From Bernardetiaceae bacterium (lineage in GTDB: Bacteria > Bacteroidota > Bacteroidia > Cytophagales > Bernardetiaceae), in NCBI GenBank assembly GCA_036822015.1, contig DAISIL010000002.1, forward strand, positions 1,141 to 11,267: a stretch of DNA of 10,127 bases, given 5' to 3'. The position numbers and the translations under genes were made by a program. How positions within the stretch are numbered: the first letter of the stretch is position 1; every line of letters begins with the position of its first letter. Positions 1 through 10,127 of the stretch are shown piece by piece. Below the pieces are notes generated by a model. The model was given only the letters and a program-made list of their open reading frames with translations, had not been told where the DNA came from and did no database searches.

Positions 1-355
1 CAGTTAAATCTAATTTTCCTGCTAATTTTGTCCAAATATCGTCGATATCTGCTTTCTCGGAAAATATAGCGATAAAGTGAATTGATTCACTGCCACCTAA
101 TTCAGAACGAAACTCTATAGCAGGTAATACAGTAATTTGATTTTGACCAAGTTGCTGTAATTCTTTAATTCTTTGTGTATCCATCCGATGATGGTCGGTA
201 ATTGCAATAACTTTTACATTGTTTTTTACCAATTCATCAATGATATCTTGATTGGTAACACTCTTATCCTGATAGTCATAGGAGCTTGGTGTATGAAAGT
301 GCAAATCCCACTTTGCCCATTCAGAGCCTTTTGGATATGGATTGTATCTTGCCAT
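1..355 (-). CDS. Partial CDS: the N-terminal about 118 aa of a PHP (polymerase/histidinol-phosphatase-like) domain protein. The start is at 355-353 and the gene continues past the left window edge. The N-terminus resembles that of large PHP-AAA-like ATPases.
   Basis: The reverse-complement translation from the ATG at 355-353 reads MARYNPYPKGSEWAKWDLHFHTPSSYDYQDKSVTNQDIIDELVKNNVKVIAITDHHRMDTQRIKELQQLGQNQITVLPAIEFRSELGGSESIHFIAIFSEK... with no stop before position 1. DLHFHT (PHP motif I), AITDHH (motif II) and an IEF glutamate (motif III) are visible. The six-frame track omits it only because the ORF is open at the window edge. GC is about 34% by hand count of nt 1-120, against about 55% in later genes. 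Confidence 0.6.
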   Translation of the reverse strand, partial: MARYNPYPKGSEWAKWDLHFHTPSSYDYQDKSVTNQDIIDELVKNNVKVIAITDHHRMDTQRIKELQQLGQNQITVLPAIEFRSELGGSESIHFIAIFSEKADIDDIWTKLAGKLDLT

Positions 356-466
356 AGTTTTTTTGATTTACCTCTCACTCCAAAGCAAACATACTAAAAA
401 ACTACAGCAAACCAAAAACGCCCCTGCCCTTGCACAAAACCGCTCCATATTGCTTATCTTTGGCTG
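356..466. promoter_or_regulatory. Divergent intergenic region between the PHP-domain gene (minus) and the esterase gene (plus). It presumably carries both promoters.
   Basis: A 111-nt non-coding gap between the divergent starts at 355 and 467. It is A-rich (aaaaaactacagcaaaccaaaaacg). No specific -33/-7 motif could be pinned with confidence. Confidence 0.25.
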
Positions 467-1123
467 ATGAAACACGTTTCGCTTACCATCCAAGCATCTT
501 ATACCACGTATCATGCCCTGACCCCATCCACGCGGCATATCTGGATGGCCTGTCATGGCTATGGCCAACTGGCGCGGCATTTTGTCCGTCGCTTTGATGC
601 CCTGGAGCCACAGGAAAACTTCGTGATTGCGCCCCAGGGCTTGTCCCGTTTTTATCTCGACGACAAGTACCAGCACGTGGGTGCCTCCTGGATCACGCGG
701 GAGGAGCGGGAGATGAGCCTCCAAAATATGTACACTTACCTCAACGCCGTCTTTGCGGCCGAGACCGCAGAAGCCCCTGATACAGCAGGTCTTACGCTTT
801 TTGGCTTCTCGCAGGGGGCGGCAGCCGTGATCCGTTGGGCCCTGGCGCATCAGGTGCCGTTTGAGCGGTTGTTTTTTTGGGCGGGTGGCTTCCCCGAGGA
901 GATCACACCGCAGGATGTCCGCTACCTGAACACGGACGAGATCGAAGTAAACTTCTTTGTGGGCAGCGAAGACCCATTTTATACCCCCGAGACGCTCGAG
1001 CGGCAGATGTCTCTGTTGCAACGGGTCTTTCCGCAGGTGCGCGTGATTCCTTTTGAGGGCGCGCATGAGGTCAAGCGGGAGGTATTGGTACAGGTAGCAA
1101 CGCGCCCGATGCTCTCGCGTTAG
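467..1123 (+). CDS. Alpha/beta-hydrolase fold esterase (phospholipase/carboxylesterase-like)
   Basis: 218-aa ORF with an ATG start at 467. It has a GFSQGA nucleophile elbow (GxSxG). A downstream acidic residue (VGSED) and His (EGAHEV) are consistent with a Ser-Asp-His triad ordering. The antisense ORF at 368..1066 is Arg-rich with no motifs. Confidence 0.8.
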   Translation: MKHVSLTIQASYTTYHALTPSTRHIWMACHGYGQLARHFVRRFDALEPQENFVIAPQGLSRFYLDDKYQHVGASWITREEREMSLQNMYTYLNAVFAAETAEAPDTAGLTLFGFSQGAAAVIRWALAHQVPFERLFFWAGGFPEEITPQDVRYLNTDEIEVNFFVGSEDPFYTPETLERQMSLLQRVFPQVRVIPFEGAHEVKREVLVQVATRPMLSR

Positions 1124-1668
1124 GCTTTCATTTTTTGGGCAAAGCTAAGGAGTGCCTGCGCAAAGGTTTCGATTTTAGAAAGAAAATCAGGGTTGATTAA
1201 AGCCCCCGTTTCGTCGATCTGTTGGGTGATCTGCCCACAGAGGAGCATCTGGGGTTGGGGATAGGCCTGCACGGCCAGGATGAGCTGTTGGAGTGCCAGG
1301 GCTGCCCGCATACCGCCCATCGCCCCCGTCGATGCTGTGGCAACGCCGATGGGTTTTCCGCCTAGCTCGTCCTTGCCCATACGATCAACGAATCCCTTGA
1401 GGGCAGAAGAGAAGCTACCGTTGTACTCTGGGCTGACCAAAATCACGGCATCGGCATTTTTTAGGTCTGTGCTGGCGGCGAGCAGTTCCGCTGATGGGTC
1501 TTCGAGTAACCGCAGGCGTTCTACGAAAGGAGGTAGGTCAAGGGCGGCTAAGTCGATCAGTTGTACCGATGTATCGGCTTGGTTTTTCAGATACTGCTCG
1601 AGAGCCAGTGCTAGGCGGTGGCTGTTGCGACCTGGACGGGTGCTGCCAGAGATGATGGCGATTTTCAT
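1120..1668 (-). CDS. NADPH-dependent FMN reductase (flavodoxin-like fold oxidoreductase)
   Basis: 182 aa beginning MKIAIISGSTRPGRNSHRLA, with a later SPEYNGSFSSALK motif. This is the diagnostic NADPH-dependent FMN reductase / SsuE-like signature. The ATG is at 1668-1666. Its stop overlaps the convergent esterase stop by 4 nt. Confidence 0.85.
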   Translation of the reverse strand: MKIAIISGSTRPGRNSHRLALALEQYLKNQADTSVQLIDLAALDLPPFVERLRLLEDPSAELLAASTDLKNADAVILVSPEYNGSFSSALKGFVDRMGKDELGGKPIGVATASTGAMGGMRAALALQQLILAVQAYPQPQMLLCGQITQQIDETGALINPDFLSKIETFAQALLSFAQKMKA

Positions 1669-1715
1669 TTGGAACGATAATTGTTTTTTTTGAGGGAAAA
1701 AAAATAAAAAGACCT
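1669..1715. promoter_or_regulatory. Very short (47 nt) divergent promoter region containing a T8-GAGGG-A8 palindromic A/T element
   Basis: Positions 1684-1691 are T8, 1692-1696 are gaggg, and 1697-1704 are A8, immediately upstream of the 1716 ATG. An A-rich leader is typical of Bacteroidota translation initiation, which lacks a Shine-Dalgarno sequence. Confidence 0.25.
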
Positions 1716-2258
1716 ATGAAAAAGTTGTGTGTATTTGCCATGGCCTTCTTTTGGATTTGTTTTCAAGGACTTGCCCAACAGGTGATCCCCCTGGAAGAGA
1801 ACCAATCATCCAATCAGGATGGTTTGTCGGTGGGCTTTTCGGTAACCAATGAACGCACCCAAAGCGCGGGCAAAGAAGAATTTTCACGGTACGAAATTAC
1901 GGTTTATCTGACTAACCAAAGCGGTTGCCCAAAAATTGTCTTGACCGGAACGGGCTTTCAGGGAGCTTTTGGGGGGAGTATCATGGATCCATCCGTTTTT
2001 GGGGTCTTTGATTGCATCAATGCTACGGGTCGTCGCATGACCTCCAAAAGTGCCGAAGTACGTGCCAACCAGTTTATTGTCCCCTTTGAGCGGCAAGATA
2101 CCAACGCCGAAGGAAAAACGATCACGCGCACCGAGCGTGTCCAGGCAGGTTTTATCCTCCGCGATGGCGAGACCATCTCAACGGACATCATCGTTTTGGT
2201 GCCGCTCGGAGAACGCCCGAGGATACAAGCCCGCGTAACGGCATTCTCTAACCTATAA
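1716..2258 (+). CDS. Secreted hypothetical protein (N-terminal signal peptide)
   Basis: 180 aa. The hydrophobic N-terminus MKKLCVFAMAFFWICFQGLAQQ is consistent with a signal peptide. No recognisable catalytic motif. The coding frame is clean and the GC is host-like. Confidence 0.55.
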   Translation: MKKLCVFAMAFFWICFQGLAQQVIPLEENQSSNQDGLSVGFSVTNERTQSAGKEEFSRYEITVYLTNQSGCPKIVLTGTGFQGAFGGSIMDPSVFGVFDCINATGRRMTSKSAEVRANQFIVPFERQDTNAEGKTITRTERVQAGFILRDGETISTDIIVLVPLGERPRIQARVTAFSNL

Positions 2259-2259
2259 G

Positions 2260-3072
2260 TTATTCATCTTCAATGATCTGTACGACACGTATCAGCGAGG
2301 AAGCACTAAAAATACCCAAACCGCCATTGCTGATGTTGGTGCGTGGATTGACGGGTGGCGGCGAAAACAAACCACCGTCGTTGCCCGCCAGGCTCAACAG
2401 ATCGCTATAATAATCGAAGACATCTTCATTGATCGAGTACTGCTCCAAAGCCACCGTATCGCCCAGATCGAAGGCGTAGGGAAGTTCTAGGTTTTCGATG
2501 TTGTCCTGGACAAAGCGATCATCGGCGAGCAAAATATCATCGAAGCCATCAAATAGGCTGTCATTGAGATAGACCCTCCAGCGATAGAAGTTCTTTTCGT
2601 TGGGGGGTTCTTTGGCAAAAAAGTACAGGTAATACCCGTCGTCTCGGAACGGCCGGCCGGCTACATAGCGCACCGTCAGGGAGTCGATTTGGGTAACGGG
2701 TAGGAGTTGGGAGCTAGCCCTAAAAAATTCTTCCTGGACTTGTACCGAAAGGCTATACGTGCGCCCGACCTCTCCCTTGAAGGCGGGGTCTGTGGGGACG
2801 TAAAAGCCCGGGCTGTCCTCCCGAAAGATCATTTCGTTGCCCGTATCGTCGCTTATACTCACCTGGGCCCCCGAGATGCGGGGGGCTTGCGTAGGGTTGT
2901 AGAAATCAAGAGATTGGGTAAGGATGACCCAGGAATAGCCCACCGTATCCACGACCTGCCCTTGTATGACAACGAGCGGTTCCTCCATGCTGCGGAGGGG
3001 TAAGTCGATCACTTGTTCGCAAGCGGTGAGCAGGGTACCGATCATCAAAATCCATACAAAATAAATGCGCAT
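2260..3072 (-). CDS. Lipoprotein, DUF4249-like
   Basis: 270 aa. The lipobox LLTAC follows a hydrophobic leader (MRIYFVWILMIGTLLTAC). The C-terminal NGGLGIFSASS resembles the conserved C-terminal GLG(I/V)FGA motif that I associate with DUF4249 lipoproteins. The domain assignment comes from memory of the family, not from a search. Confidence 0.55.
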   Translation of the reverse strand: MRIYFVWILMIGTLLTACEQVIDLPLRSMEEPLVVIQGQVVDTVGYSWVILTQSLDFYNPTQAPRISGAQVSISDDTGNEMIFREDSPGFYVPTDPAFKGEVGRTYSLSVQVQEEFFRASSQLLPVTQIDSLTVRYVAGRPFRDDGYYLYFFAKEPPNEKNFYRWRVYLNDSLFDGFDDILLADDRFVQDNIENLELPYAFDLGDTVALEQYSINEDVFDYYSDLLSLAGNDGGLFSPPPVNPRTNISNGGLGIFSASSLIRVVQIIEDE

Positions 3073-3179
3073 CTGTTTTCTTGTTTTGATTACTCTTCTT
3101 ACAAAGAGGCTTTGTAGAGCAAAAAGTTGCTTGATGGTTCGTATTTTTTTTTTCGCTATCTTGCCTCAAATTATCATGT
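3073..3179. promoter_or_regulatory. Divergent promoter region between the lipoprotein gene and the SIR2-like gene
   Basis: 107-nt non-coding gap. It has a short imperfect hairpin (acaaag-agg-ctttgt near 3100-3114) and a T10 run at 3144-3153. No confident promoter hexamers. Confidence 0.25.
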
Positions 3180-4286
3180 ATGCCCGTTAAGCCACCCGAT
3201 CAAGTAAACTGGGATTTTATTGTAGAAACGATCCGTACCGAGCGTTGTGTGTTGATGCTAGGCCCTGAGGTGGCGCGTAATGCCGAGGGCTTATCGCTTT
3301 ATCAGTCGCTCCTGGAAAGCCTCGACCTAAGCAACCAGGCAAAGGTACGTTATTACAACGACGATGAGTTTTTTTTCTTTCGCGACCCTTTGGCCAAAAC
3401 GAGGGCCGTTTTTGATATTCAGCAGTTTTATGCTCGGCATAGTCCCTCGCCGCTTTTTGAGCAAATTCTCCAAATTCCTTTCCATCTGTGTATCTCTGTT
3501 TCGCCGGACTTGATGCTGCGTCAGTCTTTTGAGCAGTACAACTTGCCCCATCGCTTCGACTACTACCGCAAGTACGAGAACCCCCAAGCGATCGAACGTC
3601 CTACGCAAGATTATCCCCTGATCTACAATCTCTTTGGTGCTATTGAGGATGATGAATCGCTGATCTTTACCCACGAAGACCTCTTCGAGTTTTTGTTCGC
3701 CATCCTGGGGGATCGGAAGCTACCACGCGGGCTGGAGAGCCAACTCCAAAGTGCCAAAAACTTTATTTTTTTGGGCTTTAAGTTCGATAAATGGTACGTT
3801 AAGTTGCTCTTGCGTTTGTTGAGTTTGCATACGGGAAACTTCTTGCGCTACGCTTCTTATAGCCAGGATTCGGTCGAGACGCTCAACTTTTGTATGGATC
3901 ACTTTCGGATTGATTTCATTGACCTAAGCATGGATGATTTTGTTCAGACCCTCTACGACCGCTGTCAGGAACGCGGGATGCTCCGCCCACTCTCGACGAG
4001 CGATACCGTACAAACGCCCTGGGAAATCATCCAGGGATACATCCGAAAAGACGAAGTGAAGGCGGCTTTGCTCAAAATCGAAAGCTACCTAGCTCCCCTG
4101 CCCCAGGAGGAGGAACTCCTCACGACGCTCACCCTGCTGATGAGCCGCTACAACCGCCTCCAGCGAAAGATCACCAATGGGGTCATCGACGAGGACGAAT
4201 CCGAACGCCAACTCAACCGCATCAAACAAGATGTCCTTAGCCTCGGGGAAGCCCTCCAGGAAATACTTGAAGAACAGCAGCTATAG
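3180..4286 (+). CDS. Divergent, probably catalytically inactive SIR2-like (ThsA-type SIR2_2 fold) domain protein with a C-terminal helical module that resembles an effector-associated coupling domain
   Basis: 368 aa with an ATG at 3180. Four blocks align with ThsA-type SIR2_2 landmarks. CVLMLGPEVARNAEGLSLYQSLL aligns with IFAGAGLSMS...WAKLL. FHLCISVSPDLMLRQSFE aligns with HTYWTTNYDRLIEKALE. LIYNLFGAIEDDESLIFTHEDLFEF aligns with VVYKMHGDVEHPSEAVLIKDDYEKY. KNFIFLGFKFDKWYVKLLLRLL aligns with KTFLFVGFSFTDPNLDYILSRV. The catalytic Asn and His positions read P and F. Residues about 280-368 (IQGYIRKDEVKAALLKIESYL...LLMSRYNRLQRKITNGVIDEDESERQLNRIKQDVLSLGEALQEIL) form a helical module. Confidence 0.7.
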   Translation: MPVKPPDQVNWDFIVETIRTERCVLMLGPEVARNAEGLSLYQSLLESLDLSNQAKVRYYNDDEFFFFRDPLAKTRAVFDIQQFYARHSPSPLFEQILQIPFHLCISVSPDLMLRQSFEQYNLPHRFDYYRKYENPQAIERPTQDYPLIYNLFGAIEDDESLIFTHEDLFEFLFAILGDRKLPRGLESQLQSAKNFIFLGFKFDKWYVKLLLRLLSLHTGNFLRYASYSQDSVETLNFCMDHFRIDFIDLSMDDFVQTLYDRCQERGMLRPLSTSDTVQTPWEIIQGYIRKDEVKAALLKIESYLAPLPQEEELLTTLTLLMSRYNRLQRKITNGVIDEDESERQLNRIKQDVLSLGEALQEILEEQQL

Positions 4287-4291
4287 CCACC

Positions 4292-4666
4292 ATGGAAAGC
4301 ACCTTGCATTTGGCAGATAACCTGCGTTGGCTGCGCCAGGAACACGACCTAACCCAGGATCAGCTGGCCCAGATACTCGACCTCAAGCGCAACACCATCA
4401 CGGCTTATGAGAGCCAAAGAAGCCTACCGCCCCTGCCCATCTTGATTCGTTTGGCGGGATACTTTCAGGTGAGCATCGACCATCTCTTATTCTGGGACTA
4501 CAAAGCCGATGCCCCCATAGATGATACACCTGCCGCTTCCGAACGCGAAACCTTGCGCCAGCACTACGAAGCCTTACAGATCGCGTACCTACGTCAGGAG
4601 ATTCACTGCCGCCAGGAGATCATACGCCTCAAAGAAGAACTCCAACAACTCAAGGGCGATCTTTGA
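4292..4666 (+). CDS. XRE-family helix-turn-helix transcriptional regulator with C-terminal coiled-coil
   Basis: 124 aa. LRWLRQEHDLTQDQLAQILDLKRNTITAYESQRSLPPLPILIRLAGYFQVSIDHLLF is a canonical HTH_3 (Cro/C1-type) domain. The C-terminal about 50 aa (ERETLRQHYEALQIAYLRQEIHCRQEIIRLKEELQQLKGDL) is heptad-like. The start lies 5 nt after the stop of the 3180..4286 gene, which implies co-transcription. Confidence 0.8.
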   Translation: MESTLHLADNLRWLRQEHDLTQDQLAQILDLKRNTITAYESQRSLPPLPILIRLAGYFQVSIDHLLFWDYKADAPIDDTPAASERETLRQHYEALQIAYLRQEIHCRQEIIRLKEELQQLKGDL

Positions 4667-4862
4667 GCGGGCAGGTATTGACCCCAATCAGGGTGTATAG
4701 CCCACAAAAGCGAACCGTCGCCGTGGCGGCCAGGGCAATGCCCCCAACCAAGACAACCCAGCCTAGGGTTCCGGCAACGACTCCACTGGCGTACAAGACC
4801 ACCAAGATAAGGGCTACGGCGTAGCGGATCAGTCGGTCTATTTTTCCTACGTTTGTTTGCAT
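4650..4862 (-). CDS. DUF2892 / YgaP-like small inner-membrane protein
   Basis: 70 aa. The N-terminal NVGKIDRLIRYAVAL matches the DUF2892 GxxDRxxR signature. It has two TM helices and a C-terminal Cys-Pro (NTCPL). Its 3' end overlaps the convergent HTH gene by 17 nt. Confidence 0.75.
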   Translation of the reverse strand: MQTNVGKIDRLIRYAVALILVVLYASGVVAGTLGWVVLVGGIALAATATVRFCGLYTLIGVNTCPLKDRP

Positions 4863-4897
4863 GGCATGATTGTTTCAGAAATGGTTTAAGCGAAAGT

Positions 4898-4947
4898 ACA
4901 AAAAAAATATGACTTACCCCAAAGACAGTCTGTAGGCCGCTTTGGCG
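4898..4947 (-). terminator. Weak candidate intrinsic terminator downstream of the site-2 protease gene
   Basis: On the minus strand, a ccaaag/ctttgg 6-bp stem (4919-4924 pairing with 4940-4945; alternatively ccgc/gcgg at 4937-4947) is followed about 11 nt later by a T8 run (plus-strand A8 at 4900-4907). The stem-to-T-tract spacing is longer than canonical. Confidence 0.2.
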
Positions 4948-4953
4948 GTTTGG

Positions 4954-6108
4954 TTATTCCACCATGAGCAGCGGCTGGGGCGTAAAGCAAAGCACAAAGA
5001 CTACCAGAGCCAGCACACCCAACGCCTTCCTGATCGGGCTAAGCGGAACAGACTCCTCTGCCCCCGGATGAGAGATACCCACCACACGCCCCAGCAAAAA
5101 ACCAAACAACAGCCAGGCATGGTAGCCCTCAATGCCTGGAAACAAAGCCGCAATACCCCATTGGCACAAAACCAGCACCAGAGCCACCACCAAAGCCGCC
5201 TGCCAGTGCCGAAACTCACGCGCCCATACCCAGTACAGATAGCCCACATACAAGATAAAGCCCGTCGGAGATTCCCATACATCGGATACCGAAAACAGCC
5301 CCAATCCCGCATAGCCCAAAAAGACAAAGAAAAACAGCCGTGCAATGCGCTGATGCCAGCGGTAGCCCACCAGCCCATAGAGGACGTGTCCGCCGTCGAG
5401 TTGGCCGATGGGCAGTAGGTTGAGGGCCGTAAAAAACAAAGCCAGATAACCGGCCAGCAAATACGGGTAGTGCATGATCTCGAAATCATTGGGGAGCAAT
5501 GCCGGATCTGCGACCCAATATTTGAACGCCTCAAAAAGCAGATTTGTGCCCAGCCGAACGCCACCCTCGGGGGCATCCTGATACACGTGATCGGCATAAG
5601 CCAGACCATACTGGGCATACTCGGGATGAATCTCGAAGATATGCTCGGCGGGCGGCAAAAAAGTAAATCCGTACCACAACACACCCAATGCTACCACAAA
5701 GCCCGCTAGTGGCCCCGCAATCCCGACATCAAAATACACCTTCCGAGACCATATCCGGCTCCTGATACGGATAAACGCGCCCATTGTCCCGATGGAAGGC
5801 GCACCCGCAAAAAGTGGTAAAAAGCCCAACCAAAGCGGAATGTAGTACGGCAAGCTGACCCGCAGCCGGTGGTATTGCGCCACAAAGTAATGCCCAAACT
5901 CATGTACGGTCAGGATGCCCAAAAAAGGGATCGAGTAATGTAGCCCATCCCAAAAGTGCGCCCACGTCAGGGCAGGTGAAACCCAAAAAAAAGGCCGCCC
6001 CCATATCCACTCTGCCCCCGCAAATGTCGTAGCAATGAAGGTCAGGAGGAAGAGCAGGGGATGCAAAAGCAAGCGAAGCAAGGGGCGCATAGGGGGCGAT
6101 GTTTTCAC
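4954..6108 (-). CDS. Site-2 protease family (M50) intramembrane zinc metalloprotease
   Basis: The HEFGH (HExxH) motif sits in a TM helix, with NLLPIGQLDGGHV (the LDG motif) downstream and multiple TM segments. A GTG at 6108-6106 overlaps the upstream methyltransferase stop as GTGA, an arrangement typical of translational coupling. An in-frame ATG at 6090-6088 (MRPLLRLLL...) is the alternative start. Confidence 0.85.
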   Translation of the reverse strand: MKTSPPMRPLLRLLLHPLLFLLTFIATTFAGAEWIWGRPFFWVSPALTWAHFWDGLHYSIPFLGILTVHEFGHYFVAQYHRLRVSLPYYIPLWLGFLPLFAGAPSIGTMGAFIRIRSRIWSRKVYFDVGIAGPLAGFVVALGVLWYGFTFLPPAEHIFEIHPEYAQYGLAYADHVYQDAPEGGVRLGTNLLFEAFKYWVADPALLPNDFEIMHYPYLLAGYLALFFTALNLLPIGQLDGGHVLYGLVGYRWHQRIARLFFFVFLGYAGLGLFSVSDVWESPTGFILYVGYLYWVWAREFRHWQAALVVALVLVLCQWGIAALFPGIEGYHAWLLFGFLLGRVVGISHPGAEESVPLSPIRKALGVLALVVFVLCFTPQPLLMVE

Positions 6109-6761
6109 TTGGTCAGGATGTACATCTCCCGCTCGAGTCCCGTAGCAGAGCTATAAGGGCGTTGCTCGAGGGAGGAGAAGCCGGCCGCCTCAGACATCCG
6201 AGCCATATCTTCGGGATAGGGCATATAGCCCTCCAGGGTTCCCCACTCGGTTTCGACGCGGATGTATTTTCGGTCTATCTTTTTGCCGACGTATTTGATT
6301 TGATCGCGGGGTGCGTCGATGTATGCCTTGCCTTGTGGGTGGAGTTGGGAGTAGATGCGATGGAGGCAAAGCATTTGATCCTCGGGAGTTTGTTCGAGTA
6401 TGCCTGACCAGAGCCACAAGACAGCATCGACCGCTGTGGGCAGTTGTAGGTCTCGGATGTCTTGTTGGATCGGGCTTACGGGGGGGTGAGTAGTTTGTTC
6501 TTCGATCAGTTGCAATAGATGGGGGATACGATCGACGGCAAATATTTCTCCGGCGTATCCCATCTCGAGCAGCCCCAGGACACAACGCCCATAGCCTGCC
6601 CCTAGCTCGGCGATGCTTTGGGTGTCCACCAAATCAGGGAAGATCACTTGCAGGTCAGGGAGGGTATCAAAGCCCGTCAGTTGTGCCAGTTCATGGAACT
6701 TTTGGAGTTCCATTTTGCGGTAAAAGTCAAGGTTATCTGCTCGGATGGTGGAATGCGTCAT
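6105..6761 (-). CDS. Class I SAM-dependent methyltransferase
   Basis: The Rossmann motif I IAELGAGYGRCV is followed by an acidic motif II (IFAVD). The ATG at 6761-6759 is preferred because the TTG at 6785 used by the ORF track would overlap the upstream gene's stop at 6772-6774. The stop is TGA at 6107-6105. Confidence 0.8.
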   Translation of the reverse strand: MTHSTIRADNLDFYRKMELQKFHELAQLTGFDTLPDLQVIFPDLVDTQSIAELGAGYGRCVLGLLEMGYAGEIFAVDRIPHLLQLIEEQTTHPPVSPIQQDIRDLQLPTAVDAVLWLWSGILEQTPEDQMLCLHRIYSQLHPQGKAYIDAPRDQIKYVGKKIDRKYIRVETEWGTLEGYMPYPEDMARMSEAAGFSSLEQRPYSSATGLEREMYILTK

Positions 6762-6771
6762 GAAAGCAAAA

Positions 6772-7446
6772 TTACAAATTTTCAAAGAGGCGGCGTTTGA
6801 GCTGCTGAAATTCTTCTTCGGAGATTGTCCCTGCCTGGCGGAGTTCCATCAGTTCGTTGAGGCGATCCAGGGGGTCTTTGGCGGCGGTGGGTTGTACTTC
6901 TACCTCTACTTCGTCGGCCTCAGAAAACTCATCCTGGGCAGCCTTGCCCCGCTTGACAAACTCGTCCTGCATCTGTCGGGCAAACTGCTTGCCCTTCTCA
7001 AACTCCTGCTGATAAAAGCTCTTGACGGCTTCGGCATCGAAGTCCTCCAAAGTGCCGCCTTTCTCAAAATGCGTTACAAAAACACGCCCCGTCGCGTAGG
7101 TAGAAGCCCCCGAAAGGATCGCCATACTGACCCCGCCCACGACCGCACCCACGCCCGGAATCATCTTGATTGCCTGTGATCCCAACTTAGGCAACGCACT
7201 GCCAGCCAGTGTATTGAGCCAGGATTCTAGGTTGCGACGACGAAAATCAACGCCATAGATTTTACACAACTCATGTACCATATCTATTTGGATCGCCGTA
7301 ACGGCTACCATATCGGCCAGTGGGATCGGAATCAAGCCGGCCCCCAACGACCAACCTACCGATCGCTCCACGATACGCTCTGCCCGCTCGTTATCGGTAT
7401 CCATGCCCATTTTTTCCTTGAACTTATAGAAGAGATAATCTAACAT
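6772..7446 (-). CDS. DUF697-like domain protein with acidic linker and C-terminal SHOCT domain
   Basis: 224 aa. GWSLGAGLIPIPLADMVAVTAIQIDMVHELCKIYGVDF resembles the DUF697 (YcjF-like) core. The C-terminal DPLDRLNELMELRQAGTISEEEFQQLKRRL is a SHOCT (short C-terminal) motif. Between them is an acidic linker, EFSEADEVEVEV. It is the first gene of the minus-strand three-gene operon. Confidence 0.6.
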   Translation of the reverse strand: MLDYLFYKFKEKMGMDTDNERAERIVERSVGWSLGAGLIPIPLADMVAVTAIQIDMVHELCKIYGVDFRRRNLESWLNTLAGSALPKLGSQAIKMIPGVGAVVGGVSMAILSGASTYATGRVFVTHFEKGGTLEDFDAEAVKSFYQQEFEKGKQFARQMQDEFVKRGKAAQDEFSEADEVEVEVQPTAAKDPLDRLNELMELRQAGTISEEEFQQLKRRLFENL

Positions 7447-7608
7447 TGTCTTTATACAGATGATTCATAATGGTAACGGATCAAGGCAAATAATGGATTA
7501 GAAAAAAGATATAAAACCCGAAAAAGTTTTTTGACTGCCGTATTTTTTGTATCTTTCCCAATCCCTTGACCGTAATCCATTGTATTCACCGCCTAGCCCT
7601 TTGCGTTT
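7447..7608. promoter_or_regulatory. AT-rich divergent promoter region containing a perfect 9-bp inverted repeat (candidate operator)
   Basis: aatggatta at 7492-7500 and taatccatt at 7573-7581 are exact reverse complements, 72 nt apart. Two ttgac elements lie at 7541-7545 and 7566-7570. The repeats flank the region where promoters for both divergent transcription units must sit. Confidence 0.3.
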
Positions 7609-8250
7609 ATGTCCGCCAAAAAAGATACCCAGCCTGTGCGTCGTCGGCCGCTCAATGCCCTCCAACACATCGAAAAACAACATCCCTATGTGGTGATGCT
7701 CTACGTGGGCATGATTGGCATTTCAGCCATGTTTTTGTTTTTGTTATTTTCATTTCGTTTTTATGAAATTCAGGAGGAGGTCTTGGCGCGGTTTCGCTTT
7801 CCGACGGGCTTTGTCATCAGCACGTGTTTGCTCCTGATGAGCAGCCTAACGATTCATCAAGCGAAGTTGTCGTTTTATGAAGATGATTTTTTGCAGATGC
7901 GGCGTTATCTCCTGATTACTTTGGGCTTGGGTATTGGTTTTTCGGTTTGTCAAGTGGTGGGTTGGTATGAGTTGCAGGCCGCTGGGCTGGCTTGGGCAAG
8001 CCAAAACTCTACAACGTATCTCTATTTGGTCTCGGGGCTACACGTCTTGCACCTCCTGGGAGGCTTGGCTTTTGTGGGGGTGCAGGCATATAGCATCCAT
8101 CAAAAGTGCCACGATCCGGTAAAAGTGTTGATTGCCGTAACCAACCCTCACGAAAAAATGAAGCTAACCTTGATGACGCTCTACTGGCACTTCATGGATG
8201 GGCTTTGGGTGGTACTGTTTTTGTATTTCGTGATGGCGTTTTTGTTTTAA
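7609..8250 (+). CDS. Cytochrome c oxidase subunit III family membrane protein (stand-alone, COX3-like)
   Basis: 213 aa with about 5 TM helices. The C-terminal LTLMTLYWHFMDGLWVVLFLYFV matches the hallmark YWHFVDVVW motif of heme-copper oxidase subunit III. No subunit I or II gene is in the window. Confidence 0.6.
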   Translation: MSAKKDTQPVRRRPLNALQHIEKQHPYVVMLYVGMIGISAMFLFLLFSFRFYEIQEEVLARFRFPTGFVISTCLLLMSSLTIHQAKLSFYEDDFLQMRRYLLITLGLGIGFSVCQVVGWYELQAAGLAWASQNSTTYLYLVSGLHVLHLLGGLAFVGVQAYSIHQKCHDPVKVLIAVTNPHEKMKLTLMTLYWHFMDGLWVVLFLYFVMAFLF

Positions 8251-8260
8251 TGGCTCCTTG

Positions 8261-10114
8261 ATGCGGATACTTTTTTGGCTTAGTCTGATTATTGCTTACC
8301 CCTTGATGGGTCAGGAGGCTTGTTTTGATGTCAATATCACGACTGGATGCGCTCCTTTGACGGTGCAAGTCATTGATTGCTCGGGGGCAGCGGCGGGCAA
8401 TATCCTCTACGACTACGGCAACGGCAACAAGGTTACCCAAACGACATTTACTTACACCCAGGCCGGCACATACCCCATCACGCAGTACGTAGGTTCGGGG
8501 GCGGGCGGGGATTCGCTACGCAAAGAAAACCTCATCGTCGTCAGGGAACCTCAACCGATTGCCTTTGATCTGCTGCCTTGCCCAGACCAGGGGCTGCTCT
8601 TGATCCTGACCGACACCACCCGAGATACCTACACCATCGACCTCGGCGATGGCAACCGAGCCACCCTCAACGCCACCGATACCCTCATCCACTACTATCC
8701 CGATACCCAGCTACGCAACATCCGAGTACAGGGTACGCTCCCCAACTGCCCCTCCACCGATACCGTTTTTGCCCCGCAACCCAACCCAGCCACCATCACC
8801 ATCGACCGCCTCGAAGTCCTGGATGACCAACGCCTACAACTGACCCTCTCCCAAACCCCAGCCGTAGCAGACTACCAACTCGAGCAACAAACCGACAACG
8901 GGGCTTTTGTTGTCCTGCAAGACCTCCCCATCGGAACAGAGACCCTGATCCTGGATGGACTAGACCTCCCCAACCGCAGCTACAGCTACCGCATCAGTCA
9001 AACCAACCTTTGCACCGGTGGCCGTACCAGCGATCAGCCCATACGTACCACCTACGCCCGCCTCACCGTCGGGAACGGCAACCTCGGTCTCCAATGGACG
9101 GCCCAGCCCCTGGATAGCACCCAGTTTGAGGGTTACCAAATCACCAAAGACGGCAATGACTTCATCACGCTCCGCGACCCCCGCACCACAACCGCCGTGG
9201 ATGGCGACGTGCGTTGCCGCAGGCGATACTGTTATCGCATCACGGCCACGCTCACCGGCGGACGGCAGTCGGTTTCGCAGGAGGTCTGTGCCGATGCCCA
9301 ACTCACCCGCAGCCTACGCCCACCGGACTCCCTCCGCGTAACGGTCAATCGCGCCAACCAAATCGAACTTACCTGGGGTAGCCTCCTCGATTCACTCTTT
9401 AACCGGATGCGCTTCACCCGCCGCGATTCCGTCGGTATCGACACCCTCACCGGCAACGACAAAGCGGCATACATCGACTTTGGGGCCAACCCCAACGCAC
9501 AAGTCTTTTGCTATCAGGTAGGCTATCAGGATTTTTGTGGCAACCAGTCCACTTTTAGTGCTGCCGTATGCCCGATCCGCTTGCAGGTAACGACGGATTC
9601 GCTGCGTTTTGATCTTCGGTGGTCTGCCTATCAGGGGTCTTTTGAACCGCTGACCTACTACCTGCTCAAGTTGGACGAAGAGAGAAATGTACTTGATTCG
9701 ATTCCGGTGAGTAGTTTTCGCTTTGGTGAGCAGATCGCCGATCAGAGCCGGCAGGTGTTGCGCTTTCAAGTCGTGGCCGTGGGCAGCCAAACCGGCTTTG
9801 CGTATGCCTCCAACAGCTTGTTGGTGCGTCTGCCCTCCAGGATGCTCATCGCCGATGCCTTTACGCCCAACGGCGACGGACTCAACGACACCTTCGGCGG
9901 CGTAGGACGCTTCATCGAGACCTACGAACTACGCATCTTTAATGCCCTCGGCAATCCCATTTTTTACAGCGACAACCTAGAAACGCGCTGGGATGGCACC
10001 CGCAACAACGGAGAAGCCTTGCCAGCAGGCGTTTATTTTTTTCAGTTGCGGGCCACCGATCAGATCGGGCGCACCTACAACATCCGCAACACCGTAACTT
10101 TGATTCGGCGATAA
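8261..10114 (+). CDS. T9SS type-B C-terminal sorting domain (gliding-motility-associated CTD) cargo protein with PKD-like and Ig/fn3-like repeats
   Basis: The C-terminal ADAFTPNGDGLNDTFGGVG...AGVYFFQLRATDQIGRTYNIRNTVTLIR is the canonical T9SS type B / CHU_C sorting domain. The N-terminal CAPLTVQVIDCSG...YDYGNGN...TYTQAGTYPITQYV follows a PKD-like pattern. It has a signal-peptide-like start MRILFWLSLIIAYPLMGQ. The ATG at 8261 is preferred over the TTG at 8258. Confidence 0.85.
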   Translation: MRILFWLSLIIAYPLMGQEACFDVNITTGCAPLTVQVIDCSGAAAGNILYDYGNGNKVTQTTFTYTQAGTYPITQYVGSGAGGDSLRKENLIVVREPQPIAFDLLPCPDQGLLLILTDTTRDTYTIDLGDGNRATLNATDTLIHYYPDTQLRNIRVQGTLPNCPSTDTVFAPQPNPATITIDRLEVLDDQRLQLTLSQTPAVADYQLEQQTDNGAFVVLQDLPIGTETLILDGLDLPNRSYSYRISQTNLCTGGRTSDQPIRTTYARLTVGNGNLGLQWTAQPLDSTQFEGYQITKDGNDFITLRDPRTTTAVDGDVRCRRRYCYRITATLTGGRQSVSQEVCADAQLTRSLRPPDSLRVTVNRANQIELTWGSLLDSLFNRMRFTRRDSVGIDTLTGNDKAAYIDFGANPNAQVFCYQVGYQDFCGNQSTFSAAVCPIRLQVTTDSLRFDLRWSAYQGSFEPLTYYLLKLDEERNVLDSIPVSSFRFGEQIADQSRQVLRFQVVAVGSQTGFAYASNSLLVRLPSRMLIADAFTPNGDGLNDTFGGVGRFIETYELRIFNALGNPIFYSDNLETRWDGTRNNGEALPAGVYFFQLRATDQIGRTYNIRNTVTLIRR

Positions 10115-10127
10115 AAAAAATAAAAAA

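Follow-up and report, generated by a model that had tools for sequence, protein, structure and literature searches.

A TrlF-family gene start at the edge of a Bernardetiaceae contig suggests recent transfer of a predicted PHP nuclease gene from a low-GC lineage

We consider it likely that the left edge of the DNA analyzed here, a 10,127-nucleotide stretch of a Bernardetiaceae contig (the window), carries the 5' end of a TrlF-family gene that recently came from a low-GC lineage into a Bernardetiaceae (Cytophagales) genome of about 53% GC, and that the full product of this gene is probably a defense nuclease. The TrlF family is already known, with its function uncharacterized, and the window gene adds one member to it. 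As such, this is an ordinary kind of finding, another horizontally acquired accessory gene from a family already named by the NCBI annotation pipeline. What the locus adds is a near-identical copy elsewhere whose homology with the window breaks at about codon 8, which would make it a clean, datable case of recent gene flow bringing a defense-type gene into Cytophagales. The features of the locus are collected in Table 1.

On the minus strand, the first 355 positions are free of stops over 118 codons and read MARYNPYPKGSEWAKWDLHFHTPSS...AITDHHRMD..., a translation that contains the motifs DLHFHT and ITDHH. The NCBIfam model NF045780 (TrlF family AAA-like ATPase) matches this fragment with an E value of 1.5e-31 and 110 bits, with fragment residues 9 to 108 aligned to profile positions 1 to 106 of 944. 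To be placed in this equivalog family, a complete protein must reach 350 bits on the HMM, and the fragment falls under this cut-off because only that initial part of the profile is covered. The Pfam PHP model gives 26.7 bits (cut-off, 26.4), and the PADLOC model for Ppl (PDLC02208) gives an E value of 5.8e-10. When the fragment is compared with 202 full-length relatives, it keeps 23 of the 24 residues that reach 90% conservation or more among them, the sole change being G79A. The PHP metal ligands H21, D54, H55, E81, and H93 are all present; H19 is kept too, but W16 to H19 were fixed by the criteria used to select the 202 relatives. The fragment thus conserves the metal-binding residues of an N-terminal PHP domain and, judged by its sequence, is the N-terminal half of the PHP phosphoesterase domain of a TrlF-family gene whose body runs off the left edge. 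The initial annotation had read the AT-rich part as a PHP-domain N terminus continuing beyond the window and had likened it to proteins annotated as TrlF-family AAA-like ATPases; the profile matches agree with it, and the full-length relatives score above the family cut-off.

Table 1. Features at the composition break on the left side of the window
Feature	Position	Strand	Details
TrlF-family gene start (assigned by profile match)	1..355	(-)	First 118 codons; ATG at 355-353; open off the left edge
Segment shared almost identically with the L025 TrlF gene	1..334	(-)	Codons 8-118; 3 non-synonymous and 8 synonymous differences
Variable N-terminal tail	335..355	(-)	Codons 1-7; homology with the L025 copy breaks down
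Divergent intergenic spacer, TrlF start to esterase start	356..466	.	Holds the change point at ~418; GC 0.37 to 0.50 across it
Candidate TrlF promoter motif TATGTTTG	386..393	(-)	TAnnTTTG pattern match, 31 nt ahead of the TrlF ATG
Candidate esterase (native gene) promoter motif TATCTTTG	455..462	(+)	Another TAnnTTTG match, 5 nt ahead of the esterase ATG
Alpha/beta-hydrolase (esterase), native flank	467..1123	(+)	GC 0.574, GC3 0.685; Pfam Abhydrolase_2 and FSH1; divergent from TrlF

The base composition changes sharply next to this gene start. Sliding-window GC is 0.345 over positions 1 to 200 and 0.33 to 0.34 up to 400, then 0.52 to 0.60 from 401 on. The coding fragment has a GC content of 0.349 versus 0.527 for the rest of the window (467 to 10127), in which the lowest-GC stretch of 355 nt is at least 0.383 (mean, 0.528; standard deviation, 0.047). 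As GC3 is 0.263 in the fragment versus 0.541 to 0.685 in each of the 12 other window genes, the anomaly lies at synonymous sites and not only in amino acid content. A two-segment likelihood scan of positions 1 to 2000 places the change point at 418, with 2-log-unit support from 399 to 514 and a log-likelihood gain of 25. The junction between native and foreign DNA lies between ~335, where identity with the copy described below stops, and ~418, where the composition changes. The abrupt boundary of the initial annotation, and its placement in the 356-466 spacer, are therefore borne out, as the step seen in the sliding-window GC (at ~400) and the change point fall inside the spacer or at its edge. 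As far as the host genome is visible, its DNA is 53% GC and not uniformly AT-rich.

Both genes flanking the spacer have a candidate promoter motif. The TAnnTTTG pattern is a Bacteroidota-type -7 promoter element; it occurs eight times in the window versus 5.2 expected, a count that is not significant. A sigma-70 promoter scan of the spacer returned nothing relevant, the sigma-70 consensus being different from that of Bacteroidota.

The closest relative of the fragment is encoded on an unrelated contig, L025 (Logan SRR7244356), which carries a copy of the TrlF gene with 95.7% DNA identity over window positions 1 to 346 (blastn). Its product, P0406, has 921 amino acids, is 94% identical to the 118 residues of the fragment, and scores 511.7 bits on NF045780, above the 350-bit cut-off. 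With P0406 as a proxy at these levels of identity (94% protein, 95.7% DNA), the full product of the window gene would be about 920 amino acids long. At the N terminus the similarity ends: of codons 2 to 7, five differ, four of them non-synonymously, and the sequences that precede the ATG in the two loci are unrelated. The NF045780 profile itself starts only at fragment residue 9, past this variable tail. In L025 the gene has a GC content of 0.30 between flanks of 0.24 and 0.35; it is solitary, with a divergent signal-peptide gene as upstream neighbor and a hairpin directly past the stop codon. The near-identical copy, the homology break at about codon 8, and the unrelated upstream DNA together constitute direct evidence of recent horizontal transfer, which the initial annotation had argued from composition and which now draws on a copy in a different, low-GC context as well. 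The fragment is presumably still AT-rich at synonymous sites because there has been too little time for it to drift to the composition of its host.

P0406 was recovered with a chimeric query in which the window's 118 residues were joined to residues 119 to 905 of P0243. In a protein search with the 118-residue fragment alone, all matches were of 207 amino acids or fewer, and a scan of the genome collection gave relatives of at most 68% identity. Searching metagenome contigs for an exact 55-nt match, viral contigs for a 32-nt match, and metagenomes with P0406 as protein guide gave no hit.

Only 118 of ~920 codons are visible; the gene is presumed to be intact in the Bernardetiaceae genome. Alternatively, it could be a decayed remnant, an acquired gene that is now a truncated or frameshifted pseudogene and of which a dead 5' fragment without function is left. 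We regard this as improbable. The 118 codons are open, the conserved positions are kept at 23 of 24, a candidate promoter motif lies upstream of the ATG, and the differences from L025 in codons 8 to 118 are mostly synonymous (8 versus 3), consistent with purifying selection. Interrupted or truncated homologues do exist elsewhere, three with early stops (L014, L016, and L017) and one of only 547 amino acids from the start of the match (L010). In addition, three protein searches that did return the adjacent esterase gave no full-length protein from the source genome; this gap is probably a property of the searches.

On the native side of the junction, the product of the esterase gene is 100% identical to P0121 (MGF1533694.1, "MAG: alpha/beta hydrolase [Bernardetiaceae bacterium]"), which has a cluster mate, P0241, at least 90% identical to it and encoded on a 116.6-kb contig. 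In the closest retrievable homologue of the esterase (L024, 62% identity), synteny with the window is lost on both sides. A Logan contig of 3,973 bp from the same population covers window positions 851 to 4823 at 99.975% identity; it ends within the esterase gene, 385 nt before the junction would be reached. As this independent assembly does not reach the junction and the source is a metagenome-assembled genome, an assembly or binning artifact has to be weighed, in which the contig joins a low-GC contig ending in the TrlF gene to a Bernardetiaceae contig. Such a false join would fit the GC step of 18 points, which is as large as any among 18 related loci, and the existence of a near-identical TrlF gene in the truly low-GC context of L025. 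However, the window sits within a 183-kb contig, the break falls at a normal divergent spacer with start codons intact on both sides and no shared repeat to seed a false join, and over the 80 nt preceding the TrlF ATG the window differs from the region that precedes the low-GC copy. A TrlF gene much AT-richer than its flanks is, moreover, the rule in isolate or long-contig genomes (by 17 points in Amycolatopsis and 10 in L012). An artifact is, in our judgment, highly improbable.

That the gene is instead a long-standing resident, its AT-richness being a family property kept by selection or by a Lys/Asn/Ile-rich composition rather than a sign of recent arrival, is the least credible alternative and extremely unlikely. 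In its favor, 16 of the 18 loci have a TrlF gene with a lower GC content than the flanks (by 6 points on average), and K, N, I, and E are abundant in P0406 and the family proteins, the coiled coil especially. Against it, the deficit here is largest at third codon positions (0.26 versus 0.62), family members in GC-rich replicons reach a GC3 of 0.52 to 0.54, and a copy with 95.7% identical DNA sits in an unrelated context. These GC3 values imply that TrlF composition follows that of the host with time, and the higher-GC copies from Amycolatopsis (0.51) and a Klebsiella plasmid (0.50) indicate that the family is not intrinsically 30% GC.

Recent arrival from a low-GC lineage is in keeping with how the family is distributed. 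An exhaustive search of representatives found 160 clusters at an E value of 1e-30 or below, mostly of 840 to 990 amino acids and matching at the N terminus; the TrlF family as a whole comprises ~1,500 clusters at 50% identity. Full-length relatives of 844 to 1,017 amino acids all lie above the NF045780 cut-off, eight of them scoring 470 to 652 bits against the required 350. Relatives are found in Bacteroidota, Pseudomonadota, Omnitrophota, Clostridiales, and Ignavibacteriaceae, with further ones in Paenibacillus-like bacteria, Actinomycetota, and one archaeal metagenome-assembled genome. As far as it could be tested, the family is thus patchy across phyla and does not have a core-genome distribution. 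Full-length matches occur in 163 plasmid records, mostly of plasmids typed as conjugative, and 20 TrlF loci were found in viral contigs.

The neighbors of TrlF genes are frequently of defense type. DNA methyltransferases abut the TrlF gene in 5 of 16 related loci, and other neighbors in this set are DarT with an ADP-ribosylglycohydrolase, Fic, and an MksE/Wadjet-like cluster, while the Klebsiella plasmid gene is accompanied by Gabija-like genes, Abi, and CcdAB. Methyltransferase-coupled relatives include L005, L006, L011, and L018. Together with the plasmid records, these neighbors agree with the initial annotation, which placed the family in accessory or defense regions. An ORF beside the MksE/Wadjet-like cluster looks integrase-like, by its N-terminal sequence only.

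The boundary had also been proposed as the edge of an acquired block or island, and for this part of the initial annotation the window gives no support. No tRNA was found in the window, no repeats of note at the composition boundary, and no integrase-like families among the window proteins scanned. In several relatives, L019 and L021 among them, the TrlF gene has inserted alone between housekeeping genes, and it is solitary in L025 too. The acquired unit may therefore be one gene of ~2.8 kb rather than an island.

The architecture of the full-length product can be approached through P0406, for which an AlphaFold2 model has a pLDDT of 83.7. The PHP part of the model resembles RNase AM (7ug9; TM score of 0.65, normalized to the target) and the PHP domain of Pol III alpha, and the ATPase part resembles MukB, Smc, JetC, Rad50, and LmuB. 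An alignment of 73 relatives shows the ATPase motifs unchanged throughout, namely Walker A (GGKSxGK), the Q-loop, the MSxGK signature, Walker B (IDQPE), and the H-loop, and a sequence search of the PDB returned generic ABC-ATPase motifs only. On this model, the N-terminal part would be a metal-dependent PHP phosphoesterase of the RNase AM/Pol III-alpha PHP nuclease type, and the remainder a predicted SMC/Rad50-like ABC ATPase head split by an antiparallel coiled coil of ~250 residues.

The most likely role of such a protein would be that of a self-contained defense nuclease against phage or plasmid DNA. By analogy with the distant homologue Ppl, the ATPase heads, which may bind nucleotide, could contact DNA ends or unusual DNA and in this way license the PHP domain to degrade that DNA. 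Extending the proposal from this gene to the whole family, we tentatively suggest, with somewhat less than even confidence, that TrlF proteins form a stand-alone defense nuclease family distinct from Ppl, in which a PHP exonuclease is fused to an SMC/Rad50-like sensor and is sometimes coupled to methylation, acting as the restriction arm beside an abutting Type IIG/ISP-like or Type I methyltransferase (in about one-third of related loci), and that the window captures a very recent transfer between lineages. If this is true, the window records the passage of such a system from a low-GC genome into a Bernardetiaceae genome of 53% GC. The leads that the family offers for testing are the models of a PHP nuclease fused to an SMC-like ATPase, genes AT-richer than their hosts, frequent abutment to DNA methyltransferases, and the lack of a recurrent TrlG partner in the loci surveyed.

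TrlF itself has, to our knowledge, no demonstrated function in Photorhabdus, and we know of no member of its family for which phage defense has been demonstrated by experiment. In the Photorhabdus trlR-trlF-trlG operon, growth restriction at 36°C was mapped to trlG with no mutations in trlF, and the operon is patchy and horizontally spread (PMC7554251). The family of the window gene is likewise patchy and horizontally spread, and its relatives share with Photorhabdus TrlF and NF045780 an N-terminal PHP domain followed by an AAA-like/ABC-type ATPase over ~850 to 1,000 amino acids. In contrast to the operon, the window gene has no upstream trlR and faces the divergent esterase instead; a TRL-type three-gene operon was rejected on this upstream side, as the spacer before the esterase is only 111 nt long and leaves no room for a trlR ORF. 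An upstream XRE-type HTH gene occurs in 1 of the 16 related loci (L009). A TrlG-like partner (AlbA_2 plus HATPase_c_4) is also not recurrent in these 16 loci, among the families listed in a Pfam census of 108 neighboring ORFs. The TrlF proteins of enterobacterial plasmids are more distant, being only ~28% identical to P0406.

Ppl of E. coli (NF042955, PDLC02208) is likewise a single-gene unit that combines a PHP phosphoesterase with an NTPase, and homology to it is detectable (E values of 5.8e-10 for the fragment and 3.7e-35 for P0406). However, scores on NF042955 are 36 bits for the fragment, 138 for P0406, and 88 to 165 for other relatives, versus a cut-off of 1000, and the possibility that the window gene is Ppl itself was rejected on the first two of these. 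Ppl is a single-gene PHP-plus-ATPase system that defends against phage (PMC11482910), and the way it is reported to act offers the best model at hand. It is described as a 3'-5' single-stranded DNA exonuclease that is kept inactive while NTPs are bound and becomes active once nucleotides are depleted and free 3'-OH ends are available (PMC12904381). With scores so far below membership (138 versus 1000), the transfer of this mechanism is an analogy only; since Ppl is a different family from that of the window gene, triggers and substrate may differ. The Spaf_1101 family AAA-like ATPase (NF045781) has a related ATPase body, with 141 to 159 bits on TrlF relatives, but these fall below its cut-off of 475 and the fragment matches it weakly, at 34 bits.

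For the separate halves of the predicted protein, the likenesses are structural. The N-terminal domain is matched best by RNase AM (YciV) and the PHP domain of Pol III alpha (7ug9, 9etk, and 2hpi), and their His/Asp/Glu metal-ligand pattern is conserved in TrlF relatives, whereas they are stand-alone or polymerase-embedded housekeeping enzymes without an SMC-like ATPase. The predicted ATPase head with its long antiparallel coiled coil matches the structures of MukB, Smc, JetC, Rad50, LmuB, and RecN, although identity to SbcCD and the SMC-like ATPases is only 10 to 14% and kleisin-like or accessory subunits are not evident for TrlF. The coupling of a nuclease to an SMC-like ATPase is shared with SbcCD/Mre11-Rad50, Wadjet JetC, and Lamassu LmuB. 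In TrlF, however, the nuclease is neither a separate Mre11/SbcD subunit of the calcineurin fold nor a separate Toprim/Cap4 subunit but a PHP domain fused in cis, so that the predicted product would in effect be a one-polypeptide analogue of SbcCD/Mre11-Rad50.

The base composition of the window changes abruptly near its left edge. In 200-nt windows, GC content is 0.33-0.35 up to position 400 and 0.52-0.60 from 401 on, and a two-segment likelihood scan places the change point at 418 (support, 399-514), which bears out the sharp switch that the initial annotation had located in the 356-466 spacer. The fragment on its left, comprising the first 118 codons of a gene that runs off the edge, has a GC content of 0.349 versus 0.527 for 467-10127, and the lowest value of any other 355-nt stretch in the window is 0.383. 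Third codon positions show the strongest depletion (GC3 of 0.263 versus 0.541-0.685 in all 12 other genes of the window), indicating a signal of mutation or ancestry and not an amino acid effect. The break is real and beyond chance fluctuation. GC also dips at 7401-7600 (0.35) and 3001-3200 (0.39), both coinciding with intergenic regions. A high AT content is thus usual for spacers of this genome, and portion 356-418 of the TrlF-esterase spacer need not be foreign.

The fragment matches the NCBIfam model for TrlF family AAA-like ATPases (NF045780; residues 9-108 to profile positions 1-106 of 944, E 1.5e-31), slightly exceeds the gathering score of Pfam PHP, and matches the PADLOC model of Ppl, a distant anti-phage relative, at 5.8e-10. 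When 1.84 billion cluster representatives were searched exhaustively with phmmer, 1,484 proteins matched at E<=1e-3, of which 160 reached E<=1e-30. Complete matches are nearly all 840-990 aa long, with the matched region at the extreme N terminus, and the NF045780 scores of eight full-length relatives taken from genome contigs are 470-652 bits (cut-off, 350). Twenty-three of the 24 positions conserved in at least 90% of 202 full-length relatives are retained, including the PHP metal ligands H21, D54/H55, E81, and H93; H19 is also retained, the WDLH positions being preset by the selection of these relatives. The sole departure, G79A, is common to the fragment's two closest relatives. The observation at 1-355 is thereby confirmed, as is its initial reading as the PHP N terminus of a TrlF-family AAA-like ATPase: the feature is a further member of a known, named, and functionally uncharacterised family, and its significance is modest.

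Whereas the 118-aa query alone returned only short proteins, a chimeric query was built from the window's 118 residues and the remainder of a 905-aa relative, and the returned proteins were screened against the fragment. The closest relative, P0406 (921 aa), has 94% identity over residues 1-118 and is encoded on a single contig, L025 (Logan SRR7244356, 3,072 bp), which shares 95.7% DNA identity with window 1-346. Codons 8-118 show 8 synonymous and 3 non-synonymous codon differences; within codons 2-7, five codons differ, of which four are non-synonymous changes. The shared segment stops at about window position 335, and the DNA upstream of the gene is unrelated, the L025 neighbour being not the esterase gene but a divergent gene with a typical signal peptide at its start. 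As L025 has a GC content of 24% in the 5' flank, 30% in the TrlF gene, and 35% in the 3' flank, a near-identical gene is matched in composition there and mismatched in the 53% GC genome of the window. This is direct evidence that the TrlF gene was recently transferred horizontally, as its foreign composition had suggested. The last stretch of L025 (2979-3072) holds a perfect 12-bp hairpin (CTTTTATAAGGC...GCCTTATAAAAG) immediately 3' of the TrlF stop codon and, at the contig end, an imperfect palindrome (TTGTCAAGG..TTGACCATTGACAA), which may be a repeat at which the assembly broke off.

The TrlF gene is AT-richer than its own flanks at 16 of 18 loci (mean, 6 points), a pattern that fits repeated, ongoing horizontal spread; the 18-point gap of the window is equalled only at the Amycolatopsis locus. 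The family is not intrinsically AT-rich, since GC3 is 0.52-0.54 in the copies from Amycolatopsis and from a Klebsiella plasmid. Genome matches come from Bacteroidota, Pseudomonadota, Omnitrophota, Clostridiales, Ignavibacteriaceae, a Paenibacillus-like MAG, Actinomycetota, and an archaeal MAG. A full-length homologue, named 'TrlF family AAA-like ATPase' in RefSeq, is found in 163 plasmid records, chiefly from enterobacteria, most of these plasmids being typed conjugative; homologues also occur in 20 IMG/VR contigs and in few phage genomes.

Several homologues have early stops or fall well below the family-norm length (L014 10001-10030; L016 10001-10210; L017 1208-1441; L010 260-1903), so decayed TrlF copies are common. 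That the gene in the window is itself a decayed remnant is nevertheless unlikely; its visible part keeps nearly all conserved positions. A chimeric join in the MAG at the compositional junction is unlikely: the boundary falls in an ordinary divergent spacer where both starts are intact and no repeat is present, the 80 nt upstream of TrlF differ from those of the low-GC copy in L025, and large negative GC offsets are usual for the family, isolate genomes included. A long-resident gene with a family-specific AT bias is very unlikely, being contradicted by both the GC3 signal and the near-identical copy elsewhere.

DNA methyltransferase genes (large Type IIG/ISP-like or Type I) abut or overlap TrlF in 5 of 16 related loci, suggesting that TrlF may at times supply the nuclease of a restriction-modification-like pair. 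Other neighbours include DarT with an ADP-ribosylglycohydrolase (L003), Fic/DOC, a nucleotidyltransferase substrate-binding protein, and a MksE/Wadjet-like cluster (L015); on a Klebsiella plasmid, TrlF has a Gabija-like gene pair on one side and an Abi gene on the other, with ccdAB close by. L015 also holds a putative integrase ORF, judged on N-terminal sequence alone, and L004 putative IS3-like ORFs, by their appearance. In L019 and L021, TrlF is a solitary AT-rich insertion amid housekeeping genes. In a Chitinophagaceae MAG (L007 9449-12535), an N-terminal GGACT/AIG2-like (gamma-glutamyl cyclotransferase) domain of ~184 aa is fused in frame, an arrangement confined to this locus among those compared. 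The family is named after an operon of Photorhabdus, trlR-trlF-trlG, that restricts growth at 36 C in strains carrying it; the phenotype was mapped to trlG, and mutations in trlF were not found (PMC7554251). No recurrent TrlG-like partner was found in the neighbourhoods of related loci. The family behaves as a mobile, defence-island-type gene able to travel alone. The family, type of context, and recent acquisition initially proposed thus stand, while the edge of an acquired block or island is unproven for the window, since the gene can travel alone.

The esterase next to the fragment is 100% identical to MGF1533694.1 ('MAG: alpha/beta hydrolase [Bernardetiaceae bacterium]'), from a 183-kb contig. 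An independent assembly (Logan SRR3311151, contig SRR3311151_14794) has 99.975% identity to window 851-4823 and stops within the esterase gene at a distance of 385 nt from the compositional junction, possibly because strains differ or because coverage falls near the insertion. A 15-nt inverted repeat (349-363 and 396-410; 87% complementary, 32 nt apart) flanks the TrlF start codon and a candidate -7 promoter box (386-393) and could be an operator or 5' structure. Farther along, a 368-aa protein with SIR2_2 and EAD11 domains (3180-4286, plus strand; weak PADLOC LmuA match, 4.6e-4) is followed after 5 nt by a 124-aa XRE-type HTH protein (4292-4666, plus strand; HTH_VI, RmrA, and capH-like matches). 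These genes look like a defence-type pair, and their GC3 of 0.62-0.65 is host-typical.

Features of the window, of related loci, and of the closest relative, P0406 (P0406 domains from the AlphaFold2 model)
Feature	Sequence	Position	Strand	Remarks
TrlF-family ORF start	window	1-355	minus	ATG at 355-353; open 118 codons to left edge; MARYNPYPKGSEWAKWDLHFHTPSSYDYQDKSVTNQDIIDELVKNNVKVIAITDHHRMD...
Intergenic spacer, 111 nt	window	356-466		between divergent TrlF and alpha/beta-hydrolase genes
Alpha/beta-hydrolase (esterase) gene	window	467-1123	plus	transcribed divergently from TrlF gene
Type ISP/Eco57I/MmeI-like methyltransferase	L005	4975-10705 (with TrlF)		upstream of TrlF
Type ISP/Eco57I/MmeI-like methyltransferase	L006	6254-12592 (with TrlF)		upstream of TrlF
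Type ISP/Eco57I/MmeI-like methyltransferase	L011	4799-11235 (with TrlF)		upstream of TrlF
Methyltransferase	L018	10001-14651 (with TrlF)		downstream of TrlF
HTH-TrlF-HsdM-HsdS-...-HsdR	L009	289-10455
PHP barrel	P0406	about 9-250		predicted
ABC-type head, two halves	P0406	about 280-400 + 760-921		predicted
Long paired helices	P0406	about 400-656		predicted
Walker A	P0406	G291-G-K-S-x-G-K297		invariant in alignment
Q-loop	P0406	Q368		invariant in alignment
MSxGK signature	P0406	776-780		invariant in alignment
Walker B	P0406	D802-Q-P-E805		invariant in alignment
H-loop	P0406	H835		invariant in alignment
Distal PHP ligands	P0406	D213/H215		invariant in alignment

P0406 stands in for the full-length protein, and its AlphaFold2 model (73 homologues in the alignment) has a mean pLDDT of 83.7 and a pTM of 0.70. 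In Foldseek searches against the PDB, the N-terminal domain matches RNase AM (7ug9, TM 0.65 normalised to target; 9etk) and the Pol III alpha PHP domain, and the rest matches MukB, Smc, Wadjet JetC, Rad50, Lamassu LmuB, and RecN. Fold and motifs thus suggest a single-chain analogue of SbcCD/Mre11-Rad50, in which a PHP nuclease is predicted to replace Mre11.

To our knowledge, Escherichia coli Ppl is the only homologue of TrlF-type architecture studied experimentally. Ppl is a single-gene anti-phage system (PMC11482910), described in a 2026 review as a 3'-5' ssDNA exonuclease that NTPs inhibit by binding to both domains and that is switched on when phage deplete nucleotides and free 3'-OH ends are present (PMC12904381). 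By analogy, TrlF-type proteins may follow the same logic, with an NTP-held nuclease that would be freed by depletion and 3'-OH ends. TrlF is, however, a different family from Ppl, as P0406 scores 138 bits on the Ppl model (NF042955) versus a cut-off of 1000.
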